Sequence record: MT446396.1
From: Escherichia virus TH22
DNA: 64,000 nt
Reading direction: 5' to 3' (one strand)
The notes under the pieces were generated by a model. The model did no database searches and was not told the DNA's origin. It saw only the letters and a list, made by a program, of their open reading frames with translations. Below are positions 2,297 through 24,625 of the stretch, in pieces. Every line of letters starts with the position of its first letter. Within the stretch, counting starts at the first letter, position 1. Made by a program: the position numbers and the translations under genes.

Positions 2297-3829
2297 ATGA
2301 TTTTAGATATTTTAAATGAAATTGCTGCAACTGATTCTACGAAAGAGAAACAAGCTATCTTGGAATCGTATTCTGATAATGAAACCCTTAAACGTGTGTA
2401 TCGTTTGACATATTCCAAAGGCATCCAGTTCTATATCAAGAAATGGCCAAACGCTGGGTTAACTACCCAAAGCTTTGGCATGCTGAATATCGATGATATG
2501 CTTGACTTTATCGAATTCACATTAGCCGCGCGCAAATTAACAGGTAATGCTGCAATCGAGGAATTATCTGGCTATATTGCAGATGGTAAAAAAGATGATG
2601 TTGAAGTCTTGCGCCGCGTGATGATGCGTGACCTGGAATGTGGTGTGTCTGTATCAATTGCGAATAAGGTTTGGAAAGGTTTAATTCCTGAACAACCACA
2701 GATGCTCGCTTCTTCTTATGATGAAGCCGGTATTGCTAAGAACATTAAGTTCCCGGCATTTGCACAATTGAAAGCCGATGGTGCTCGGTGTTTTGCAGAA
2801 GTTCGTGGCGATGAGTTGGATGATGTTCGATTGCTATCCCGAGCTGGTAACGAATACCTTAAGCTTGACCTCCTTAAAAAGGAATTGATTGAAGCTACCC
2901 GTGAAGCGCGCGAGAGACATCCTGAGGGCGTTTTAATTGATGGCGAGTTAGTATACCATGAGCAGAAAGTAGCTCCCCAGAATGACGGTTTGGGCTTCCT
3001 TTTTGACGATTCAGATGAGATTGCTCCTGCAAAAGAATTTGCAGAATCAAGAACCTTTTCAAATGGCATGGCAAACAAATCATTAAAAGGAACTATTTCT
3101 GCGGCAGAAGCTTCTTGTATGAAATTCCAGGTTTGGGATTATGTTCCACTGATTGAAGTCTATTCTGATGTTAAGATTCTCAATCCACTGAAATATGATG
3201 TGCGTTTTGCTGTTCTGGAAAAGATGATTGCAGATAATGTGGTATTGCATGGTTTTGACCGCATGATTCTGATTGAAAACCATGTTGTTAACAATCTCGA
3301 TGAAGCGAAAGTTATCTATAAGAAATATGTAGATGAAGGTCTTGAAGGTATTATCCTTAAGAACATGGCATCGATTTGGGAAAACAAGCGCTCAAAGAAC
3401 CTGTATAAGTTCAAAGAAGTAATTGACATTGCAATGGAAATCATTGGATATTACGAGCACGATAAAGACCCGAATAAGATTGGCGGTGTGGTGCTTCGTT
3501 CTTCTTGTGGTAAGATTACAAATAACTGTGGTTCTGGTTTTAAAGACACAACTCAAGTCAAAGATAAGAAAACCAAAAAATGGGTTACTATTCCGATTGA
3601 GGAGCGTCATGAAATGGACCGTGAAGCCTTGATGGTTAAAGCACGTAAAGGTGAATTGGTTGGAATGATTGCCGACTGTGAATGCAATGGTTGGTTGACT
3701 TCCGAGACTCGTAAAGATAATACGGTTGCATTGTTCCTGCCGATTATTAAAGGGTTCCGTTTCGATAAAGACCATGCAGACACATTCGAAGATGTATTTG
3801 GCGACTGGTCAAAGACCGGGTTAAAATAA
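2297..3829 (+). CDS. 30: ATP-dependent DNA ligase
   Basis: 510 aa; N-terminus MILDILNEIAATDSTKEKQAILE and long colinear stretches (e.g. FAQLKADGARCFAEVRGDELDDVRLLSRAGNEY) match T4 gp30 as recalled. Confidence 0.95.
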   Translation: MILDILNEIAATDSTKEKQAILESYSDNETLKRVYRLTYSKGIQFYIKKWPNAGLTTQSFGMLNIDDMLDFIEFTLAARKLTGNAAIEELSGYIADGKKDDVEVLRRVMMRDLECGVSVSIANKVWKGLIPEQPQMLASSYDEAGIAKNIKFPAFAQLKADGARCFAEVRGDELDDVRLLSRAGNEYLKLDLLKKELIEATREARERHPEGVLIDGELVYHEQKVAPQNDGLGFLFDDSDEIAPAKEFAESRTFSNGMANKSLKGTISAAEASCMKFQVWDYVPLIEVYSDVKILNPLKYDVRFAVLEKMIADNVVLHGFDRMILIENHVVNNLDEAKVIYKKYVDEGLEGIILKNMASIWENKRSKNLYKFKEVIDIAMEIIGYYEHDKDPNKIGGVVLRSSCGKITNNCGSGFKDTTQVKDKKTKKWVTIPIEERHEMDREALMVKARKGELVGMIADCECNGWLTSETRKDNTVALFLPIIKGFRFDKDHADTFEDVFGDWSKTGLK

Positions 3830-3834
3830 CAAAA

Positions 3835-3852
3835 GGGCTTCGGCCCTTTTTT
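3835..3852 (+). terminator. rho-independent terminator GGGCC-UUCG-GGCCC + U6 after the ligase
   Basis: Hairpin plus T6 run read directly. Confidence 0.8.
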
Positions 3853-3854
3853 AG

Positions 3855-3862
3855 TATAAATA
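3855..3862 (+). promoter_or_regulatory. T4-type late promoter TATAAATA upstream of alt
   Basis: Exact TATAAATA about 25 nt upstream of the alt ATG. Confidence 0.6.
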
Positions 3863-3887
3863 CATCATATTTTATAAGGAACCTATT

Positions 3888-5948
3888 ATGTCTGAACAAT
3901 TAAATGAACTCTTTGACAAATATATCGAAGCCTTCGGTTATCCTGTCATTAATATGAATCCAAAATACAAGGTCCCACAGGTTTGGCAATTTGGTGTTCC
4001 TGGGACCAATTCTCTTATGGCTCGTTTGATGCAATTCACGGGCAAAGAAACAGTTAAACAATATAAACGCGGCGATGCAATTGCCGAGGTATTCCTGTTA
4101 TCCGGAACTTCACACGGTCATGCTGTTCCTCTGAAGGGTGGTTTAGGTGAAAAACCTCTTGATGCAATTAACTTGATTTTTACTACAGTCTGGGAAAGCA
4201 TTAAACTAGGCAAACCTGATGTAGTCTTGTTCCGTTTCCCATCCAAAAAGATGAAAGGACAAGACCAAGCTATTATTCGTATTATGAATCGACTGATTCA
4301 AATGAAAACCAGCGGACGTTATCATGTTCTTCCGAATGCTTCTGGCCTTGGTAAAAAGAACGCTTATGTAATTATGTACAAAAGGGGTGTTGACCTGCTT
4401 TCAGTCGATGGTATGCCACCAGTCCCTGAGAAATATAAAAAAGTCGAAACTAAAGTTGGTGATGTATTCACCAATAAAGATAATGGTGCACAAGTATCCA
4501 AACAAGAAATTGCAGCCGAGATTCTGATTGACGCAGCAAACAAAAAGACCGATGCTGCTGTTGCCCAGAAAACTAAAATCAGTCGCCGAGCTATTGCACA
4601 AGCCCAGTACGCTCCAAGTGATTCCGTGCCAGAAGGTTGGGACGAAATCGATGCAGAAGCTGCTAAGTTTAGTCGACCGGCTACGGCAGAACTTATCGAT
4701 GATTATGAAGAACTGGAAATTTTTGTTCGACCTTCCGAAACGAATACTATGGCTCGTATGCGCGCAGCAGATACGGCTATGCGAGCAAATGGTGTTTGGA
4801 AAGAAGAAATTCGTGTTGAAGACTCTGACCCAATTTTTAACCGTATGCATCGCGAACTTAAACGTGCTCCAGTTGGTAGTATGAAGCAGATGCAGATTTT
4901 TGCCGAATCATGCGCAGAGATTCTTAACCTTCGCAAAGCCGCATTTATCGAAAGAAAAATGAATGATGCTCCTCCTAATGTGGATGCAGCCACTTATGCA
5001 GCCTCGCTCTGGGAAAAAGAATACACAAGCGCCATTCGTGTTGCAGTTAAAGACTTTGCTGAAGAAGCATCAGAAAATACTCTTAATTTCACAGCAGGGT
5101 ATACTGACAACCGTTTCCATTATGGTCAGCGAGAAGCAATTGCAGATTATTGTGGAGCAAACTATGCCGATATTAATAATTATTTGATGGGCAAATATTA
5201 TGAAGAAGAAGCTGAATTCCTAAATCTAGACAGAGTTGTCGAAACAATTAAGGAATTGGATTCGGCCTTTGAAATTGGACATAAGTTGCCACCTAATACA
5301 ACTCTTTGGCGTGGTCAATATTTAAACGTTCCTACATTTGATAAAATTAAGAAATCTAAATTATTTTATTTCAGGAACTATGTATCAACGTCGTTTAAAC
5401 CGATTATCTTTGGTGGCTGGGTGGCGAACGTTGCTATGGCTGCAGTTCATCAGGACTATCGTGATGGGACATCTTTCCAGGCTGATGACGAAATTGTTTT
5501 ACCAGATATGCCGGAAGCACGCCGCGACCACGTAATGATGCATGTTGGTTGGAAAATTTCTGGGGCGGACTTAATTAACGTAATTGTTCCTGGGGAATTG
5601 TCAGGCAACCCATCCGAGCAGGAAGTTATTCTTCCTCGTGGGACTGTAGTTAAGATTACCAAAATTACTGATGCTTCGTATCAAGGAAACGCGAACGTCA
5701 AAATGCTGGAAGCTGATATCCAGACTACGGACCAACTGGATGAAAATGCAGTTATCTATGATGGTGATGTGTTGATGGAAACTGGTGAGCTTGTCGTTTA
5801 TCAGGGCGAGGAAACAGAAGAGCCAGTAGAATCTGTTGACTTTGCATCGTTTGCATCCTCTGGGGTAACGAAGAAAGTCAATCAAGGTCTTGGTATTCTT
5901 GCTAGTTGTATTAATTTGGAAGCTATTCCTCCTAAATTCCTTTCGTAA
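3888..5948 (+). CDS. alt: Alt-like ADP-ribosyltransferase (capsid-packaged, injected)
   Basis: 686 aa (T4 Alt about 682 aa); position between ligase and gene 54 as in T4; C-terminal R-S-E motifs (LWRGQ, YVSTSF, EQEVILPRG). Confidence 0.85.
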   Translation: MSEQLNELFDKYIEAFGYPVINMNPKYKVPQVWQFGVPGTNSLMARLMQFTGKETVKQYKRGDAIAEVFLLSGTSHGHAVPLKGGLGEKPLDAINLIFTTVWESIKLGKPDVVLFRFPSKKMKGQDQAIIRIMNRLIQMKTSGRYHVLPNASGLGKKNAYVIMYKRGVDLLSVDGMPPVPEKYKKVETKVGDVFTNKDNGAQVSKQEIAAEILIDAANKKTDAAVAQKTKISRRAIAQAQYAPSDSVPEGWDEIDAEAAKFSRPATAELIDDYEELEIFVRPSETNTMARMRAADTAMRANGVWKEEIRVEDSDPIFNRMHRELKRAPVGSMKQMQIFAESCAEILNLRKAAFIERKMNDAPPNVDAATYAASLWEKEYTSAIRVAVKDFAEEASENTLNFTAGYTDNRFHYGQREAIADYCGANYADINNYLMGKYYEEEAEFLNLDRVVETIKELDSAFEIGHKLPPNTTLWRGQYLNVPTFDKIKKSKLFYFRNYVSTSFKPIIFGGWVANVAMAAVHQDYRDGTSFQADDEIVLPDMPEARRDHVMMHVGWKISGADLINVIVPGELSGNPSEQEVILPRGTVVKITKITDASYQGNANVKMLEADIQTTDQLDENAVIYDGDVLMETGELVVYQGEETEEPVESVDFASFASSGVTKKVNQGLGILASCINLEAIPPKFLS

Positions 5949-5951
5949 GGG

Positions 5952-5981
5952 GTTTACAAGCACAAGGAAGTGCGATACAAT
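5952..5981 (+). promoter_or_regulatory. early promoter (GTTTAC-18 nt-TACAAT)
   Basis: -35 GTTTAC and -10 TACAAT with 18-nt spacer, then GAGGA and ATG at 6013. Confidence 0.55.
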
Positions 5982-17132: not shown

Positions 17133-18266
17133 ATGGCTTATACCGTAGCTATTGCTCCTTTGGCGGCTACGGCCGTTATTGGAGCAACAACCAATTTCAC
17201 TGCAACCGGCTCTGGTGCTGCAGCTGAAGGTGTTGAATCATTTGTATGGACCGTTGATGGCGTTCCTCAATCTTCTGTGACTGCAGCAATGGCTTATGTC
17301 GCTGTTGGCCCAGCAGGCAGTAAGACTATTAAAGTTGTTGCAACAACTACACCAGCGGACGGCGAACCGGAAACTGCTGAGGCTGAGACGACTTTAACTA
17401 TCCAGAATAAAACAATGCCGGCAATCACGCTGACTTTAGACCCAGCCTCTGTTACTAAAGAAATAGGACAATCTCAAGTTGTTACTGCTAACGTGACAGG
17501 CGCTCCTTCTGGTGCAACAATCGCTTACGTTTGGAAACGTAACACTAGCGTAATCGCAGGTCAAACTGGTAAAACTATTACCGTCACCGAATCAGCAGAA
17601 GCAAATTATACATTGAACTGTGAAGTTACTGTTTCTGCACCCGATTATAATAATGGCACCGCATCTAAAGGAGCTGCGGTAACTTTTGTTAAGAAAACTA
17701 TGTCGGGTGTTTCTGTTACTTTAGCACCGACCTCTATTAATGTTCCTGAAGGAACTCCGGCTTCTTTTAAAGCTACTGTAGCCGGTGCGCCTGCTGGTGC
17801 TACTTTTGCCTATTCTTGGAAGAAAGATGGTTCACCAGTCGCTGGTACCACGGATACTTTAGCAATCGATACAAGCGCCGAAGGTTCCCAGTTAATTGAA
17901 GTTTCTGTTGTTGTATCTGCTACAGATTATAACCCTGTAACCGTTACCAAAACTGGTAATGTAACAGTCACGGCTAAAGTCGCACCAGTTCCAGATGGCG
18001 AATTACCATATATTCACCCATTGCCAGTACGTAATTCAGCTTATATCTGGTGTGGTTGGTGGGTTATGGATGAAATTCAGAAAATGACTCTTGCCGGACA
18101 AGACTGGAAAACTGATGACCCAGATAGCCCGTATTATTTGCACCGATACACACTTCAAAAAATGATTACCGACTATCCAGAGGTTGATGTACAAGAATCT
18201 CGTAATGGTCGAGTTATTCATCGCACCGCTTTAGAAACTGGTATTATATACGATTACGTTTATTAA
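17133..18266 (+). CDS. hoc: Hoc, highly immunogenic outer capsid protein (Ig-like domains)
   Basis: 377 aa (T4 Hoc 376 aa); repeated Ig-like segments and conserved C-terminal capsid-binding region. Confidence 0.85.
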   Translation: MAYTVAIAPLAATAVIGATTNFTATGSGAAAEGVESFVWTVDGVPQSSVTAAMAYVAVGPAGSKTIKVVATTTPADGEPETAEAETTLTIQNKTMPAITLTLDPASVTKEIGQSQVVTANVTGAPSGATIAYVWKRNTSVIAGQTGKTITVTESAEANYTLNCEVTVSAPDYNNGTASKGAAVTFVKKTMSGVSVTLAPTSINVPEGTPASFKATVAGAPAGATFAYSWKKDGSPVAGTTDTLAIDTSAEGSQLIEVSVVVSATDYNPVTVTKTGNVTVTAKVAPVPDGELPYIHPLPVRNSAYIWCGWWVMDEIQKMTLAGQDWKTDDPDSPYYLHRYTLQKMITDYPEVDVQESRNGRVIHRTALETGIIYDYVY

Positions 18267-18435: not shown

Positions 18436-18639
18436 ATGAGAATCATTATGGATAAGGTTAAAGTACATTTTCTGCATGAATCTGGCATGACATTTATTGA
18501 AATCGCCAAGGTATTAGGCGGGACTGCTAAAGAGATGGCAAAGGCCTGGGTTGATGTAGAACAAGCCAAAGCTAAATTTAAAGCGAAAGAAAAGATTGTT
18601 TATCGTAAACGTTTGAATAACAAAAAGGTGAAGAAATGA
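18436..18639 (+). CDS. hypothetical small basic protein (67 aa)
   Basis: ORF after an early promoter; lysine-rich C-terminus. Confidence 0.4.
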   Translation: MRIIMDKVKVHFLHESGMTFIEIAKVLGGTAKEMAKAWVDVEQAKAKFKAKEKIVYRKRLNNKKVKK

Positions 18640-19029: not shown

Positions 19030-20037
19030 ATGTTTAAGAAATACAACAGCCTTGAAAATCACTATAATAACAAGTTCATTGAAAAGATTCGCCTGCAAGG
19101 CTTCACCAGCGGTGAATGGGTAGCTCGTGAAAAGATTCATGGTACCAACTTTAGTTTAATCATTGAACAAGACAATGTGACATGCGCGAAACGCACTGGA
19201 CCTATTCTACCTGCAGAAGATTTCTATGGTTATGAAATTGTATTAAAGAACTACGCAGATTCTATTAAATCTGTGCAGAAACTTTTACAGGATATTAATT
19301 ACCAGGCTTACCAGATTTATGGCGAGTTTGCTGGTACAGGTATTCAGAAGAATGTGGATTACGGCGATAAAGATTTCTATGTGTTTGATATCCGCGTTAC
19401 TAAGGAAGATGGCTCTGAATCCGTCCTGACTGACACACTTATGGAAGCCTTTTGTATTATTCATAAGTTTAAAGTTGCCCCACGCCTGGCCACAGGTAGC
19501 TTTGAAGACTTGATTAAGCTCCCTAATGACCTGGATTCTGTGGTCCCTGATTACAATTTTACAGTGGATAACGCAGGATTGACTACAGCAAATACCACTG
19601 ATTTTGATGCAAAGGTGGAAGGTAAAGTATTCACTGCTGAAGGATTTGTATTAAAACCTGATGTTCCTGCATGGTTACCTAACGGCGAGCGTGTAGCGAT
19701 TAAATGTAAGAACTCTAAATTCAGCGAAAAGAAAAAGTCTGATAAGCCTATTAAGGCTGCTGTTGTGTTGTCCCAGGAAGACCTGGATGTTTTATGGAAG
19801 TTTACTGATTATGTGACTGTCAACCGTATCAATAATGTTATCAGTAAGATTGGGGAAGTAACACCTAAGGATTTTGGGAAGGTAATGGGTTTGACTGTCC
19901 AGGATATCCTGGAAGAAGCGGGTCGTGAAGGCCTTGAATTGACCCAAACAGAAAATCCTGTTGAAGTTAAAAAGCAACTTATCGCAAATGTAAGAGAAAC
20001 ATTAAGACATGTTTGGATTGCATTAATTAGTGAATAA
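19030..20037 (+). CDS. rnlB: RNA ligase 2 (Rnl2)
   Basis: 335 aa; [19 protein letters not shown]...[12 protein letters not shown] and [18 protein letters not shown] match T4 Rnl2 as recalled, including the KxHGxN nucleotidyltransferase motif. Confidence 0.9.
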
Positions 20038-20068
20038 AAAAAGGGCCGCAAGGCCCTTATTCTTTTTC
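20036..20068. terminator. bidirectional terminator AAAAAAA-GGGCC-GCAA-GGCCC-UUAUUCUUUUU
   Basis: Hairpin flanked by A-run and T-run between convergent rnlB and gene 24 paralog. Confidence 0.8.
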
Positions 20069-21340
20069 CAGCGGTGGAAGTTTAACACCAAGATAAGAAC
20101 TCAATTGACTTTGGTTAGCCATCTTATCCATATCAGCTCCATCAATAAGGCGAGCTTCTTTATCATCTTTAGCAACGGTGTAAGGGTTCGCAGTCAAAGC
20201 ATAACGAGCTAACAGTGCAACCGTAGGCTGTAAGCTTTCAGGGTCAACAATAACCTTGAATTCCCCAACCGAGGTATCACCCTCATCATCAACTTCGCTA
20301 AGCCCTTCCGTATAAGGCGCATAATACAAAGATGCGACCGTCTGACCTTCACCCATATCTGCATTTACACCAACAATAACATAATCACATGGACTATTCA
20401 TATCAGCGTAAAGAGGCAAACCGTTCTTCAGAACACCATAGGCCAATTCATCCTGGTCTTCCTTTTTCTCAACCCAGCCAGAAGCGGCTAAAATAGCTGC
20501 ACAACGGGAAGAAGCAACCGCATATGTACCAGCAAACGAAGTCTGACGTTGAACTGCAGAATTCATTTCACACATATAATAATACAGGGTTCGCGCGCGG
20601 TCCTGCGCGTTATCATATTTCGGGTCAGTAAGATTCAATACACCTTTTTCCGAAACACCTTGCACCTTGAAGCGGGAACTAACAGTAATAAGGGATTGCA
20701 ATACATCCTTATTAATTTCCTCTGCCATTTGAATGCCGAGAATATTATCGATGAAGTCTGTTGCATCAAAACCGTTTGCTTCCAGGTCCTGGGCAAGCTC
20801 GACAGTTAAAGAAGTTTTCAACTTTCTGGATTTAACTTCAGTCTGCCATTTATCGATACGAAAACCAGCTTCAGCAATTTCAGGATGCCCCTTTTCAAAT
20901 TTATCAGTGAAAGCAGCATCTGACATCATTCTTATATGCCCAGCAGCAATGGCTTCAGAAATAACTTCACCTAAATCAGTTTCGAGTGTACCGGCGAATG
21001 GGGATGCTTCCAAAACTTTGAACACAACACTTTCAAACTGGAACATATCGCCGACTGCATAAGCTTCGTCTTTGTTTGTAAATTCTGGAATATTCTTACG
21101 CTCGAACATACCAATCTGACCTGCAAATGTTGCTCCACCGAGATAAGTCATTTTATCATCTGGGTTCAGAACACGAACACCATACAGCGCTGCAACAGGC
21201 TGGGTAGTTTTCTGTTCGGCCACGAGCGCTTTAAAAATTCGTTTATTCGTGGCTTGAGTATAAGAAAGCAAATTAGGACGGGCGACCTGGTTGGCCGCCG
21301 TTAATGTTGATTCGTGAATTAGTGCATTAATCTTTTGCAT
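20057..21340 (-). CDS. capsid vertex protein paralog (divergent second copy of gene 24)
   Basis: 427 aa; colinear with the adjacent gp24 (MQKINALIHEST versus MAKINKLLREST, shared RKLKT..TVELAQDLEANGF, ANPYTVAKDDKEARLIDG) but clearly more divergent. Confidence 0.8.
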   Translation of the reverse strand: MQKINALIHESTLTAANQVARPNLLSYTQATNKRIFKALVAEQKTTQPVAALYGVRVLNPDDKMTYLGGATFAGQIGMFERKNIPEFTNKDEAYAVGDMFQFESVVFKVLEASPFAGTLETDLGEVISEAIAAGHIRMMSDAAFTDKFEKGHPEIAEAGFRIDKWQTEVKSRKLKTSLTVELAQDLEANGFDATDFIDNILGIQMAEEINKDVLQSLITVSSRFKVQGVSEKGVLNLTDPKYDNAQDRARTLYYYMCEMNSAVQRQTSFAGTYAVASSRCAAILAASGWVEKKEDQDELAYGVLKNGLPLYADMNSPCDYVIVGVNADMGEGQTVASLYYAPYTEGLSEVDDEGDTSVGEFKVIVDPESLQPTVALLARYALTANPYTVAKDDKEARLIDGADMDKMANQSQLSSYLGVKLPPLEKE

Positions 21341-22621
21341 TTACGCCTCATAAATGATTGGCGGAAGTTTAACACCGAGCAGATAAGACATATTGCTCTG
21401 ACCGGCCATTAAATCCATATTGGTTGCATCGATAATACGAGCTTCTTTATCGTCTTTAGCAACGGTGTACGGGTTAGCTGAAAGTGCGTAACGAACCATC
21501 AGAGAGATAGATGGCTGCAAGCTGTCTGGGTCCACAATGACCTTAAACGCACCAACGTGCTCTTCATCATCCAAGTCCAGGCCTTCGGTATAAGGAGCAT
21601 AGAAAATTGCGCCTACGACTTCGTTTCCGCCGTAATTTTCTTTAACACCAACAGTTACATAATCCAATGGACTGTTAACATCACAGAATACAGGGAGGCC
21701 ATTAATCAAATAACCGTACGCTGTTTCGGGGAGCCACTGTTCGTCTTCTGGTCTGTGTTTCAACCAACCAGAACCGGCCAACATAGCAGCAACACGGCTA
21801 GAGGCAACAACAAAGGTACCGGAATAAGATGTAGTTTTCTGAATTTCGGAGTTCATTTCGCAAACCAGTTCGTACAGTTTACGTGCACCTTCTGGGGCTG
21901 CATCGTATGTTAAATCGATGGTGCCATTGTCAGAAACGCCAGTTACTTTATAACGCTTGGAAACGGTAATAAGAGACTGAAGAACATCTTTGTTAATTTC
22001 ATCTGCCATAATAGTGGCAAGCAGGTCTTCTAAGAAAGCAGGAGCATTAAAACCATTTGCTTCCATATCCTGGGCAAGTTCAACAGTTAATGCAGTTTTC
22101 AATTTACGTGTTTTAACCGGAGCATTCCATTTGTTAACCTGGAATACAGCATTGCTAATTTCAACATCACCGGCTTCGAATTTTTCAGTGTGTGCGGCAT
22201 CAGGAACAAGGCGAATAGTCGATGCAATAAGACCTTCTTGCAGAACATCAGATAACACTGTTTCTGTGGTCGATGCAAATGGATTATCAACCAGAGCTTT
22301 GTAAACGATATTTTGGTATTTTATATATTCGCCTTTAGCCACAGGCTGAGTGGCTGTAGTTAATTCTGGAATAGTTGTGCGGTCTTTAGAACCGACTTCG
22401 CCTCCATAAGTAGCGCCCGTCTGGAAACTGAATTCATTATCAGGAGTAAGATATTTAACACCATACAGTGCAGCAACAGGTTGGTTAGTACGTTGTTCAG
22501 CGATGATATCGCGGTAAATCAATTTAGTCGTAGCGCGGGTCAAAGCAACAAGATTCGGGCGGCCCAAGGAGTTGCTGGTAGTAATAGTTGACTCGCGCAG
22601 TAATTTGTTAATCTTTGCCAT
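21341..22621 (-). CDS. 24: capsid vertex protein
   Basis: 426 aa; MAKINKLLRESTITTSNSLGRPNLVALTRATTKLIY closely matches T4 gp24 (427 aa) as recalled. Confidence 0.9.
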   Translation of the reverse strand: MAKINKLLRESTITTSNSLGRPNLVALTRATTKLIYRDIIAEQRTNQPVAALYGVKYLTPDNEFSFQTGATYGGEVGSKDRTTIPELTTATQPVAKGEYIKYQNIVYKALVDNPFASTTETVLSDVLQEGLIASTIRLVPDAAHTEKFEAGDVEISNAVFQVNKWNAPVKTRKLKTALTVELAQDMEANGFNAPAFLEDLLATIMADEINKDVLQSLITVSKRYKVTGVSDNGTIDLTYDAAPEGARKLYELVCEMNSEIQKTTSYSGTFVVASSRVAAMLAGSGWLKHRPEDEQWLPETAYGYLINGLPVFCDVNSPLDYVTVGVKENYGGNEVVGAIFYAPYTEGLDLDDEEHVGAFKVIVDPDSLQPSISLMVRYALSANPYTVAKDDKEARIIDATNMDLMAGQSNMSYLLGVKLPPIIYEA

Positions 22622-22647
22622 TTGCGCTTTCCTTTTGTGATATACTT

Positions 22648-22655
22648 TATTTATA
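22648..22655 (-). promoter_or_regulatory. late promoter TATAAATA (minus strand) for gene 24
   Basis: Plus-strand TATTTATA about 27 nt upstream of the gene 24 ATG. Confidence 0.6.
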
Positions 22656-22661
22656 AAAGTT

Positions 22662-22708
22662 GTTTACAACCAGATTAAGATAAGACATAATGATTCCATA
22701 CTGAGTTA
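22662..22708 (+). promoter_or_regulatory. early promoter GTTTAC-18 nt-CATAAT followed by conserved leader GATTCCATACTGAGTTA
   Basis: Hexamers read directly; the same leader recurs at 60795, 61681 and 62209. Confidence 0.6.
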
Positions 22709-22733
22709 ACAAACAAAACCTTGGAGTTTAAAA

Positions 22734-23015
22734 ATGAACAAAGCAACTTTCCTTCTGAACACCTTTAAAAAATTGGAAATTGAAGTTATTACATTGGTCA
22801 ACAAATACCCAAATGGTGTTAATGGTAATGCTCTGAACAAACTAGTTAAAAAATATGAAAACTTAGCATATGACACTGATTTCTGGTGGAATGGTAATTA
22901 TTCTACTCACACTAAAGATAAAAATGGTAACTGGTTGAAACTTCAAGAAAACAATGTTAACTTCAGAGACCTCATCAAGCGCCGGGTAGAAGTTCATTTA
23001 AATGGTATGGTATGA
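22734..23015 (+). CDS. hypothetical early protein (93 aa) between genes 23 and 24, opposite strand
   Basis: ORF with own promoter, GGAG Shine-Dalgarno and downstream terminator; N/K/W-rich. Confidence 0.45.
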   Translation: MNKATFLLNTFKKLEIEVITLVNKYPNGVNGNALNKLVKKYENLAYDTDFWWNGNYSTHTKDKNGNWLKLQENNVNFRDLIKRRVEVHLNGMV

Positions 23016-23023
23016 AAACAAGA

Positions 23024-23050
23024 AAGGGACCTCAAGGGTCCCTTTTTATT
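23024..23050. terminator. terminator GGGACC-UCAA-GGGUCCC + U-run (A-rich on the other side)
   Basis: Hairpin between convergent ORF 22734 and gene 23. Confidence 0.75.
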
Positions 23051-23065
23051 TAACTTAATCTAGGA

Positions 23066-24625
23066 TTAAATTCCTTTAACATATACGCGGCGGAAGTAAC
23101 CGTTCAAGCCGAGGCTGTTAACGATGTCTGGCATGCCGTTCTGAATGCGCTTGGTCGGAGCCTGAGCTACCGGGTCAGCGAACGGGTTAATACCGATACC
23201 GTAACGGGTTTTGAAGCCCATAACCGGCTGGAAGTTTTTCGGGTCAGAGCCACGCAGCGGGGTCAGTGCAACATATGGTGCGTAGTAGATACCAGCATCC
23301 ATTTCGTTAGCGCCTTTGTAACCGATGGTGAAATAGTCTGCACGAGCATACTGGTCGATGTATACACGGTATTTGCCACCCAGAACACCAGCGAACACAG
23401 CTTTAGTGGTGTCAACGTTGAAACCTTTACCCAGACCCTGAGCAGCATAAGATACGGAGGTATCAACTGCAGCCAGTACGTTAACTACGTTACGGGAAGC
23501 GATGATGAAGTTACCTGCACCACGGCCAGTCTGACGAGCGATTTCAGCGGCTTCTTTATCAATCTGGAACAGTAAAGCTTTGAAGCTTTCACCAGCCCAA
23601 CGAGCGCCACGGATATCAATCGGGTCCTGGAAGTCAAACACACCAGCTTTAGCGCCAACGGTGTTGGTCATACCAGATTTACCAACCTGTGCGGAGTAGT
23701 TAATCCAATCGATAACTTCGCGGTTGATTTCCAGCATAATTTCGGTAGCCAGAATACCACTCAATTCGGCATCAGCATCCATACCATGAACAGCGCGCAG
23801 GTCCTGTGCCAGTTCGATGGAGTAACTTGCTTTCAGCTGACGGGATTTAGCTTCGATAACTTGTTTATCGATACGGAAGCCCATTTCGTTCCACGGGTTA
23901 TCAGTAGAACCGTTGAAGCCTTCCTGCAATTCGGCGATAGAGGTAGCCATACCTTCAGCGATTTCGGCCAGCTTACCAGCTTCGAGCAGTTTGGTAACTT
24001 CGGCGTCAAGTTTAGCGGCATCAGTAGCAGCAGCATCAACGGTTACAGCTTCAACAGCCTGGAAGTGCGCGGCACCGGTTGCTTCGAAGAAGTGAGAATA
24101 AATTTTACCAACGGTAAGAACTTTGCTTGCAGCCAGAGCTTCGAAAGCCTCAGCAGCGCCCTGACCAGAGAACATAGCATTTGGAGCATACATCGGGTGG
24201 AAAGCTTCTTTAGCACCAGCAGCTACAGGGTCTTTACCGTAAACTGCACGCAGGGCAAATACCTGGCCAGTCGGGTTGTTCAGAGGCTGTACGCCACAAA
24301 TATCAAACGCAATCAGATGTGGGATAGCACGACGAACCATACCCATAACTGCCGGCCCAATCTGAGTTACTGCACCAGAGGTCTGGCCAGCAGCGATATT
24401 GGTAGCATCATAACCATGGTCACCACCGATTTCAGCTTCGGTCAGGAAAGAACCAAATGCTTCGGAGATTTTTTCGTCACGGTATTCAGGAGCGGTCAGA
24501 ATATCTTGTTCCTGGTTTTCAAAGATTTTAGCGATGATAGCTTGTTTAGAAGCACCAACGATTTCCGGAAGAGCTTCGTTTTCCAGCAGAGCGGACCATT
24601 TTTGAACTAATGCATTCTTTTTCAT
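23066..24625 (-). CDS. 23: major capsid protein
   Basis: 519 aa (T4 gp23 521 aa); paralogous to gp24; position between 22 and 24. Confidence 0.95.
   Translation of the reverse strand: MKKNALVQKWSALLENEALPEIVGASKQAIIAKIFENQEQDILTAPEYRDEKISEAFGSFLTEAEIGGDHGYDATNIAAGQTSGAVTQIGPAVMGMVRRAIPHLIAFDICGVQPLNNPTGQVFALRAVYGKDPVAAGAKEAFHPMYAPNAMFSGQGAAEAFEALAASKVLTVGKIYSHFFEATGAAHFQAVEAVTVDAAATDAAKLDAEVTKLLEAGKLAEIAEGMATSIAELQEGFNGSTDNPWNEMGFRIDKQVIEAKSRQLKASYSIELAQDLRAVHGMDADAELSGILATEIMLEINREVIDWINYSAQVGKSGMTNTVGAKAGVFDFQDPIDIRGARWAGESFKALLFQIDKEAAEIARQTGRGAGNFIIASRNVVNVLAAVDTSVSYAAQGLGKGFNVDTTKAVFAGVLGGKYRVYIDQYARADYFTIGYKGANEMDAGIYYAPYVALTPLRGSDPKNFQPVMGFKTRYGIGINPFADPVAQAPTKRIQNGMPDIVNSLGLNGYFRRVYVKGI

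Follow-up and report, generated by a model that had tools for sequence, protein, structure and literature searches.

Escherichia virus TH22 carries two adjacent genes for the capsid vertex protein gp24, and both genes most likely encode functional vertex subunits, as judged from sequence. The gene pair is real, old and conserved. The second gp24 is already known, having been annotated in public genomes since 2007, and the observation itself adds nothing new, as the genes have been named for years in JS98, IME08, VR7, S16 and others. We describe the pair with respect to its family membership, expression, distribution, selection and possible role. The window analysed was a stretch of 64,000 nucleotides of the TH22 genome (MT446396.1), in which the following features were located.

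23023 to 23045, minus strand: terminator after gene 23, by which transcription of gene 23 is kept apart from the 24-24 operon
22648 to 22655, minus strand: T4-type late promoter TATAAATA, located 26 nt ahead of the ATG of copy 1
22630 to 22634, minus strand: Shine-Dalgarno sequence AAGGA of copy 1, 8 nt ahead of its start codon
21341 to 22621, minus strand: gene 24 copy 1, 426 aa, orthologous to T4 gp24 and the conservative one of the two paralogues
21346 to 21349, minus strand: Shine-Dalgarno sequence GAGG of copy 2, within the final codons of copy 1 and 5 nt from the copy 2 start codon
20057 to 21340, minus strand: gene 24 copy 2, 427 aa, the derived paralogue
20041 to 20058, minus strand: intrinsic terminator, GGGCCttgcGGCCC and then a run of T, sharing positions with the stop codon of copy 2

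The two genes adjoin on one strand and are colinear throughout, forming a tandem arrangement within the local gene order 20-67-68-21-22-23-(small ORF)-24-24-rnlB. By BLASTP, 235 of 428 positions were identical between copy 1 and copy 2 (55–55.5%, with 75% positives and an E value of 3e-173), and the alignment extended from end to end with 10 gap positions. An earlier note on this DNA had given the coordinates, strand and lengths of both open reading frames exactly, and its description of two colinear gp24 paralogues in tandem was borne out by this alignment. The absence of a gap between the genes was also as described (junction ...GAGGCGTAA/ATGCAA), and the core motifs that it had quoted for copy 2 are there, in SRKLKTSLTVELAQDLEANGFDA and ANPYTVAKDDKEARLIDG. 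The upstream copy is indeed the T4-like one, with 69% identity to T4 gp24 as against 56% for copy 2. The wording 'very close' to T4 gp24 was, however, an overstatement, because gp23 of the same phage is 85% identical to T4 gp23; copy 1 has thus drifted further from its T4 counterpart than the neighbouring gp23 has from its own.

Alignment of both copies with gp23 (ORF at 23066 to 24625), proposed in the same note as a check, gave 28–29% identity over the C-terminal approximately 250 residues, with E values of 2e-18 and 2e-22 for the two copies. The duplication from gp23 to gp24 represents the same process at an earlier time, in which an HK97-fold shell protein was duplicated beside its parent and specialised. 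The division of labour between gp23 in hexamers and gp24 in pentamers has been established by structures and bypass-24 genetics (PMC9958956), whereas that between copy 1 and copy 2 is putative.

Both copies are homologous over the full length to T4 gp24 (PDB 1YUE, 5VF3, 7VRT/7VS5, 8GMO). Copy 1 matched the T4 gp24 structures 1YUE/7VS5 with an E value of 1.1e-193 and copy 2 matched T4 gp24 with an E value of 4.3e-148, in each case over residues 1–424. The two proteins belong to the same Pfam family as T4 gp24, PF07068 (Gp23/Gp24 HK97-fold shell protein), with scores of 328.5 bits for copy 1 and 327.5 bits for copy 2 against a gathering cut-off of 24.4 bits, and both were assigned to PHROG 138; none of the NCBIfam models matched copy 1 or copy 2. 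The AF2 model of copy 2 (mean pLDDT 73.6, pTM 0.71) gave its best match to gp24* in the T4 capsid (5VF3_a, TM 0.82, E 2e-49), and lower scores to gp23* chains (TM 0.58–0.62). The N-arm in this model is of low confidence (pLDDT about 31).

The site for the prohead protease gp21, between E10 and S11, is kept in both copies. Both residues were invariant in 59 diverse gp24 sequences, the two paralogues among them, and the motif around the site (the slash marking the cleavage position) was LLRE/ST in every copy 1 and LI-x-E/S in every copy 2. Mature gp24* chains in the PDB begin at the position corresponding to residue 11 of the query.

Sequence signals around the pair were compared with those of other two-copy phages. 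TATAAATA is the only late promoter serving the pair and none is located inside copy 1; the whole window contained 22 matches to the late promoter, as against 4.9 expected. T4 gene 24 likewise lies downstream of gene 23 under the same type of late promoter, and its product has the same E10/S11 site. The promoter was found at the same position in 12 of 12 two-copy phages examined, and the Shine-Dalgarno sequence of copy 1 is kept as AAGGAAAGCGCA in Gaprivervirus, Dhakavirus and S16 phages. At the junction, the copy 1 stop codon TAA (21341–21343) abuts the copy 2 ATG (21338–21340) with a gap of 0, and the stop-to-start spacing stayed between −4 and +1 nt across the 12 two-copy phages of six genera; the copy 2 Shine-Dalgarno sequence is weaker in Marfavirus and Cronus. 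The terminator after copy 2 works in both directions and serves the convergent rnlB gene as well, and a hairpin terminator was present at the same position in all two-copy phages compared. No internal promoter or terminator was detected within the pair in 12 phages of six genera. Co-expression of the two copies, for which the earlier note had considered co-translation probable, fits this architecture of one late promoter, a TAA-ATG junction with embedded GAGG and one terminator. T4 has one gene 24 and one kind of penton, whereas TH22 would co-express two paralogues.

Two other readings of the junction were rejected. A regulatory or sequestering RNA structure was considered, but folds at the junction were no more stable than those of shuffled sequence in four genera (z −0.8 to +0.8). 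In TH22, copy 2 is in frame with copy 1 behind a single TAA; a conserved read-through fusion protein was nevertheless discarded, because the frame relation of the copies is 0, 1 or 2 depending on the genus.

The TH22 window belongs to Gaprivervirus and shows 100% identity in this region with TH55 and UPEC07, while DNA identity over the gene pair was 91.9% for VR7 and 82% for JS98. Orthologues of copy 2 occur in 116 phage records, which were deposited independently and cover at least six genera; 17 IMG/VR loci carry the same arrangement. In all of these, copy 2 is located directly downstream of copy 1. Copy 2 alone was never seen in the records, the IMG/VR loci or the trees, nor was a double-cassette copy 1 without copy 2. 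By this comparison with relatives, the arrangement is an old one and no peculiarity of the TH22 genome.

The same pair has been named 24a/24b in JS98 (EF469154, NC_010105) and IME08, 24(1)/24(2) in VR7 (HM563683), 'capsid vertex protein I/II' in VR5, VR20, VR25 and VR26, gp108/gp109 in S16, and 'head vertex protein I/II' in CGG4-1. The JS98-like and VR7-like pairs agree with that of TH22 in genes, order, junction and operon, with no difference of substance. In the records of the JS98/VR7 group the genes are named only, and no functional statement on the second copy was found there. In the searchable literature, nothing was found on what the second gp24 does, whether it is part of the virion or how it is built, nor did proteomic, genetic or cryo-EM work on any two-copy phage turn up. 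Among gp24 structures, the PDB holds that of T4 only, and none from a two-copy phage.

Both paralogues are under strong purifying selection, copy 2 at least as constrained as copy 1. For unsaturated pairs, omega was 0.039–0.066 for copy 1 and 0.007–0.030 for copy 2. Of 14 fixed differences between the paralogue groups, 8 fall within residues 8–57, corresponding to the N-terminal arm (P = 5.5e-5). The outgroups carry the copy 1 state at 12 of the 14 positions, copy 2 being the derived one there. Positions that discriminate the paralogues include 34 (L/R), 57 (Y/V) and 415 (L/Y) in T4 numbering. In the expanded T4 shell, the N-arms touch neighbouring subunits (PMC9958956). No gene conversion between the copies was detected. 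Nucleotide identity between copy 1 and copy 2 was about the same within a genome (0.60–0.62) as between genomes (0.595–0.61), indicating that the copies evolve independently. The subtrees of copy 1 and copy 2 mirror each other. Within the JS98/VR7 group, recombination has brought together different combinations of copy 1 and copy 2 alleles. Such reshuffling speaks against a tight co-adaptation of pairs, for example in an obligate hetero-oligomer.

In phylogenetic trees, all copy 2 genes formed one clade with 100% bootstrap support, and copy 1 formed a clade with gp24 of T4, Merlin and Karamvirus (98–99%). The copy 2 clade was attached at a polytomy that also comprises the Jiaodavirus/Tegunavirus and Acinetobacter-phage lineages (bootstrap 9–44%), its support being low in both the tree of 24 taxa and that of 134 taxa. 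In terms of identity, copy 1 is closer to gp24 of T4 (69%) and of Jiaodavirus (about 64%) than to copy 2 (about 55%); for gp24 of KP1079, identity to copy 1 was 63.7%. The term 'tandem duplication' used in the earlier note is thus correct as to tandem colinear paralogues, but the copies are not each other's closest relatives. Accordingly, either the duplication is very old or a foreign gp24 has been acquired in tandem. The possibility that T4 gp24 is a chimera of copy 1 and copy 2, generated by unequal crossing-over, was rejected, as T4 has the copy 1 state at 14 of 14 positions between residues 8 and 415.

As to acquisition, copy 2 could be a xenologue from a divergent T4-like phage inserted in tandem, or the two-gene cassette could have moved between genera via recombination in conserved flanks. 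We consider such an origin rather unlikely. It is favoured by the position of copy 2 within the polytomy and by the identity of 62.7% between copy 2 and Jiaodavirus gp24, which exceeds that with copy 1 of the same genome. Exchange of cassettes is favoured by the neighbouring genes: rnlB groups JS98/VR7 with T4 (99%) and gp23 groups S16 with Merlin (100%), whereas the gene 24 tree consists of a single-type clade and a double-type clade, each at 100%. Because these groupings clash, the history of locus 24 differs from that of its neighbours. On the other hand, the perfect tandem, same-strand and coupled placement is the expected product of unequal crossing-over, and one duplication followed by one loss explains the gp24 tree, in which the single-type clade of T4, Moonvirus and Karamvirus is monophyletic with 100% support. 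The derived state of copy 2 at most of the fixed differences is consistent with divergence after duplication, and a potential donor, meaning a phage whose sole gp24 is of the copy 2 type, was not found in the records or IMG/VR loci.

For the role of the two copies, we propose that the products of both genes are functional gp24-type subunits of the capsid vertices (pentons). The genes would be transcribed as one bicistronic late mRNA, from the single promoter to the single terminator, and copy 2 would be translated by ribosomes terminating at the abutting copy 1 stop codon. Both proteins would then enter the prohead, where gp21 protease presumably cuts each after Glu10. Copy 1 would keep the role of T4 gp24, and copy 2 would be a derived, specialised paralogue with its specific changes concentrated in the N-arm; in T4, the N-arm shifts to the outside of the shell when the capsid expands, where it locks onto adjoining subunits. 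On this scheme, two kinds of gp24 subunit probably make up the eleven non-portal vertices of the prolate head. The intact genes, the gp24 fold, purifying selection, co-inheritance, the operon layout and the cleavage motif are observed, and from these we infer translation coupling, virion incorporation, processing and the division of labour among vertices. Taken as a whole, this scheme of a coupled late pair, with both products trimmed by gp21 in the prohead and used for two-subunit vertices, appears to us the more probable account.

Separate homopentamers on geometrically non-equivalent vertices are the likeliest arrangement, with mixed pentamers as the alternative; the earlier note had raised heterogeneous vertices or a specialised vertex as a possibility. 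A second subunit is not required by geometry, since T4 and many genera build the same prolate head with one gp24. An extended form of the proposal, that the paralogues occupy different vertex classes and that single and double locus-24 cassettes are swapped between Tevenvirinae genera independently of the flanking head genes, is put forward tentatively, as we think it possible but doubtful. For instance, one paralogue may serve the apical vertex and distal ring and the other the portal-proximal ring. If this is true, the shell would consist of three specialised HK97-fold paralogues (gp23, gp24-1 and gp24-2).

A different use of copy 2 would be as a conditional or back-up vertex protein, employed when copy 1 is targeted or sensed, for instance by a gp24-responding host defence, or else under particular physical conditions. 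It would then not be a constitutive second building block. The two copies diverge most in the surface-exposed segment of residues 61–155 (39% identity), and copy 2 of Erwinia phage Cronus naturally has Val at residue 380, the site of Thoeris escape in T6. Elsewhere, however, Ala380 is conserved in both paralogues, Cronus copy 2 being the sole exception, and a difference in immune evasion at this site was rejected on this ground. A back-up role also sits poorly with the coupling to one late promoter, by which both proteins would be made in every infection, with the stronger constraint on copy 2 than on copy 1, the opposite of that expected for an arms-race gene, and with the strict co-occurrence of the two copies. 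We regard this role as improbable.

Copy 2 could also have left the vertex role, acting as an assembly factor (in gp21 activation or as a transient vertex cap) or at a non-vertex position in the shell, with copy 1 alone forming the pentons. Attachment of gp24 to T4 prohead vertices is thought to trigger the protease (PMC9958956), a function separable in principle, and the derived N-arm of copy 2 could mean different partners. Nevertheless, copy 2 keeps the entire gp24 architecture, with 139 alignment columns invariant over all gp24s including copy 2, and there is no domain gain or loss beyond a 3-residue difference in one acidic loop, which is the longer in copy 2 (residues 348–359). The maturation cleavage site is retained, and the predicted copy 2 structure superposes best on capsid gp24*. 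Such a departure from the vertex is thus very improbable. Decay, lack of expression or misassembly of copy 2, in favour of which nothing speaks beyond the bare duplication, can be practically dismissed: the ORF is intact in the 116 records of at least six genera, its omega is 0.007–0.03, the Shine-Dalgarno sequence, junction and terminator are conserved, and an assembly artefact is excluded because the copies differ at 45% of residues, incompatible with a collapsed or expanded repeat, and recur in the same arrangement in these records and the 17 IMG/VR loci. The earlier note had named a second copy absent from virions and unexpressed, or an artefact, as what would overturn its view; as far as sequence tells, neither applies, with strong purifying selection on the pair.

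The gene pair is of value as a natural experiment on the question of why phages of the T4 type have a protein dedicated to the pentons at all. The maintenance of two pentons under strong selection through the divergence of at least six genera suggests that the vertices are more specialised than in the T4 model. The constraint on copy 2, its N-arm changes, and the discordance of single and double cassettes with the genes on either side offer handles for cryo-EM and proteomics. Recent work has implicated gp24 as a trigger component of type IV Thoeris, so that a second gp24 could bear on how these phages interact with host defences and on which phages are chosen for therapy.

The earlier note had described two adjoining minus-strand ORFs as colinear paralogues of the capsid vertex gene 24 that abut without a gap, and each part of this observation was borne out. 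The boundaries were confirmed exactly, with the upstream paralogue (copy 1, the orthologue of T4 gp24) at 21341..22621 (426 aa) and the downstream paralogue (copy 2) at 20057..21340 (427 aa). Pairwise alignment ran end to end with 55% identity, 75% positives and an E-value of 3e-173, and the junction reads GAGGCGTAA followed by ATG, the copy 1 stop standing directly against the copy 2 start. T4 gp24 residues 1-424 were matched by both copy 1 (E 1e-193) and copy 2 (E 4e-148), and both copies matched PF07068 and PHROG 138. The ORF for the major capsid protein gp23 (23066..24625) aligned with either copy at 28-29% identity across the C-terminal ~250 residues.

By megablast, 92 phage records matched the pair, including Escherichia phages TH55 and UPEC07 (100%), vB_EcoM-VR7 of Gaprivervirus (91.9%) and JS98 of Dhakavirus (82%). 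Both genes carry names in deposited annotations: '24a/24b gp24 head vertex protein' in JS98 and IME08, '24(1)/24(2)' in VR7, 'capsid vertex protein I/II' in VR5, VR20, VR25 and VR26, gp108/gp109 in S16, and 'head vertex protein I/II' in CGG4-1. The finding was therefore already known at the annotation level; the gene 24 pair is widely annotated and has no novelty as a discovery. Among the full-text papers searched, none discussed the function or virion presence of the second copy, and the gp24 structures in PDB are from T4, with none from other phages.

Using copy 1 as the tblastn query, gp24 was detected at 1541 places in 1418 phage records. Orthologues of copy 2 were found in 116 records (copy 2 query, E < 1e-170), from phages of Escherichia, Klebsiella, Salmonella, Enterobacter, Kosakonia, Erwinia, Yersinia and Proteus. 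Copy 1 lay immediately upstream of copy 2 in every locus retrieved and in 17 of 17 copy 2 loci from IMG/VR, four metagenomic contigs among them; no genome in either set had a copy-2-type gene as its sole gp24.

The signals for transcription and translation of the pair are arranged as follows.

Transcription and translation signals of the gene 24 pair
22648-22655, minus strand: T4-type late promoter TATAAATA, 26 nt upstream of the copy 1 ATG
Between the late promoter and the copy 1 ATG, minus strand: AAGGA Shine-Dalgarno sequence of copy 1
Within the last codons of copy 1, minus strand: GAGG Shine-Dalgarno sequence of copy 2, 5 nt before the copy 2 ATG
20058-20041: terminator (GC-rich hairpin and T run) overlapping the copy 2 stop and also serving the convergent rnlB

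The pair is served by this one late promoter, with no TATAAATA inside copy 1 and no terminator between the copies; a further terminator follows gene 23. Both strands of the window together contained 22 matches to TATAAATA, an enrichment over the 4.9 predicted by shuffling. Most of the matches were on the minus strand, upstream of structural genes, consistent with late transcription of the T4 type throughout this 64-kb morphogenesis region. The same layout was observed in 12 of 12 two-copy phages compared (Gaprivervirus, Dhakavirus, Gelderlandvirus, Kanagawavirus, Marfavirus and Roskildevirus): in each, a single late promoter serves the pair, the junction gap is -4 to +1 nt, and copy 2 is directly followed by a terminator. 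The junction RNA folded no better than shuffled sequence, so any coupling of copy 2 would depend on proximity alone. Copy 2 of the window, VR7 and JS98 shares the frame of copy 1, from which a single TAA separates it (window 21338-21343), such that read-through would yield an 853-aa fusion. We rejected this fusion as a conserved feature; the frame relation varies among genera, and the in-frame state of these three phages is therefore probably incidental.

We then estimated selection by the Nei-Gojobori method for pairs with unsaturated dS (0.1-0.4). Omega was 0.039-0.066 for copy 1, 0.007-0.030 for copy 2 and 0.03-0.10 for gp23, indicating that copy 2 is a functional gene constrained at least as much as copy 1. 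A pseudogene or artefact is excluded for copy 2. No gene conversion between the copies was detected, their nucleotide identity being ~0.61 both within and between genomes.

An AlphaFold2 model of copy 2 (59-sequence alignment; mean pLDDT 73.6, pTM 0.71) superposed best on mature gp24* of the T4 capsid (TM 0.82 for 5VF3_a, 0.77 for 7VRT, 0.68 for 1YUE), above the 0.58-0.62 obtained for gp23* chains. Glu10-Ser11 was invariant in all 59 gp24 sequences, position 8 being L or I, and the gp24* chains in PDB begin at residue 11. The T4 prohead protease cuts off a 10-residue propeptide at this site (PMC9958956). Across 32 gp24 sequences, 139 of 442 alignment columns were invariant and 14 separated the copy 1 group from copy 2 by a fixed difference. 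Eight of the 14 (L8I, V25L, A26S, T32N, L34R, Y36F, K56R and Y57V) fall in residues 8-57, an excess over a uniform distribution (binomial P = 5.5e-5). This segment is the N-arm, which in T4 reaches the outside of the capsid when the shell expands and contacts neighbouring subunits extensively (PMC9958956). The arm is disordered in the copy 2 monomer model (pLDDT ~31). The most divergent region between the copies is residues 61-155 (39% identity), also the most variable inside each clade, which we take to be the gp24 surface insertion domain. Single-copy outgroups carry the copy 1 state at 12 of the 14 fixed differences, which marks copy 2 as the derived paralogue.

In a 24-sequence NJ tree the copy 2 genes formed one clade (100% bootstrap), and the copy 1 genes were joined (98%) by the gp24 of phages with one copy, namely T4, EC128, Merlin (Moonvirus) and a Karamvirus; the internal branching orders of the copy 1 and copy 2 clades mirrored one another. 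An enlarged tree of 134 sequences, metagenomic proteins included, gave 100% for copy 2, 99% for copy 1 plus singles, and 100% for copy 1 of the two-copy phages. The position of the copy 2 clade with respect to the Jiaodavirus/Tegunavirus and Acinetobacter-phage lineages and to the clade of copy 1 and singles had low bootstrap support (9-44%) in both trees. Copy 2 is nearer to outgroups than to copy 1 (55.5%), with 62.7% identity to the outgroup KP1079, to which copy 1 shows 63.7%. Taken together, the trees and identities indicate that the pair is the product of a single, old event. This may have been an in-situ duplication, with a single later loss in the T4/Moonvirus/Karamvirus cassette, or a divergent gp24 may have been taken up in tandem; such a xenologous origin of copy 2 is an alternative that concerns history, not function.

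The gp24 grouping differs from that of the flanking genes. JS98 and VR7 group with T4 in flanking-gene trees (rnlB 99%), S16 with Merlin in the gp23 tree (100%; 91% identity), and Marfa with the Karamvirus (85%). For gp24, identity was 84% between window copy 1 and S16 copy 1 and 85% between T4 and Merlin, against 69% between window copy 1 and T4 and 67% between S16 copy 1 and Merlin. Single and double cassettes at locus 24 are thus interleaved over the backbone, which implies probable cassette exchange by recombination. JS98 copy 2 was 95% identical to Gaprivervirus copy 2 and ~90% to other Dhakavirus copy 2 (VR5, Bp7), while its copy 1 showed the opposite affinity, 95% to VR5 and Bp7 and 89% to the window (L003, the JS98 locus, 2496-5060 versus window 20057-22621); these opposite affinities indicate recombination between the two genes. 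The window rnlB (19030-20037) groups with Dhakavirus alleles (100% bootstrap), and that of VR7, also Gaprivervirus (L001, the VR7 locus, 4976-5980), with T4 (93%). The discrepancy suggests a recombination breakpoint within the genus, immediately downstream of the gp24 pair.

Other differences were noted in the surroundings. Between genes 23 and 24 the window has a 93-aa ORF on the opposite strand (22734-23015, plus), where the segD homing endonuclease is located in T4. It matched PHROG 6003 (unknown function; E 2.5e-46) and gave no Pfam match; stretches just upstream (22663-22691 and 22706-22735) match sigma-70-like promoters. Annotated homologues are found at the corresponding place in JS98 (orf173), VR7 (ORF190c), VR5, VR20, Bp7 and MN01. 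S16, Marfa and Cronus lack the ORF at this locus, and it is therefore not linked to the gp24 pair. Yersinia phage TG1 has a 1.5-kb hypothetical gene between genes 23 and 24, on the opposite strand (L010, the TG1 locus, 906-2420), and its rnlB (3810-4797) is annotated as two separate ORFs and thus possibly disrupted. Between hoc and 24.3, VR7 carries two additional minus-strand genes (L001 2022-4251), which encode another Hoc-like decoration protein and a 'tail fiber' protein with collagen repeats. The window lacks both, hoc ending at 18266 and the 24.3 homologue starting at 18436.

The earlier note's interpretation, a second vertex paralogue that could imply heterogeneous or specialised vertices, is supported in part. 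On the reading with the best support, each gene encodes a functional vertex subunit. Copy 1 and copy 2 would be co-produced from one late bicistronic mRNA, both proteins would enter proheads and be trimmed by gp21, and copy 2 may be specialised in N-arm engagement of neighbours. Vertices could hold separate homopentamers, on non-equivalent vertex classes of the prolate head, or mixed pentamers. Alternatively, copy 2 may be a conditional or back-up vertex protein, possibly tied to gp24-responsive defence: phage T6 evades type IV Thoeris through the gp24 substitution A380V (PMC13243611). The corresponding position is naturally Val in copy 2 of Erwinia phage Cronus (L007), and every other gp24 sequence examined, whether copy 1, copy 2 or single, has Ala there. 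An assembly role of copy 2 away from the vertex is a further alternative. The second gene, probably for a penton protein, is strongly conserved, and the comparative handles from this analysis make its role directly testable.
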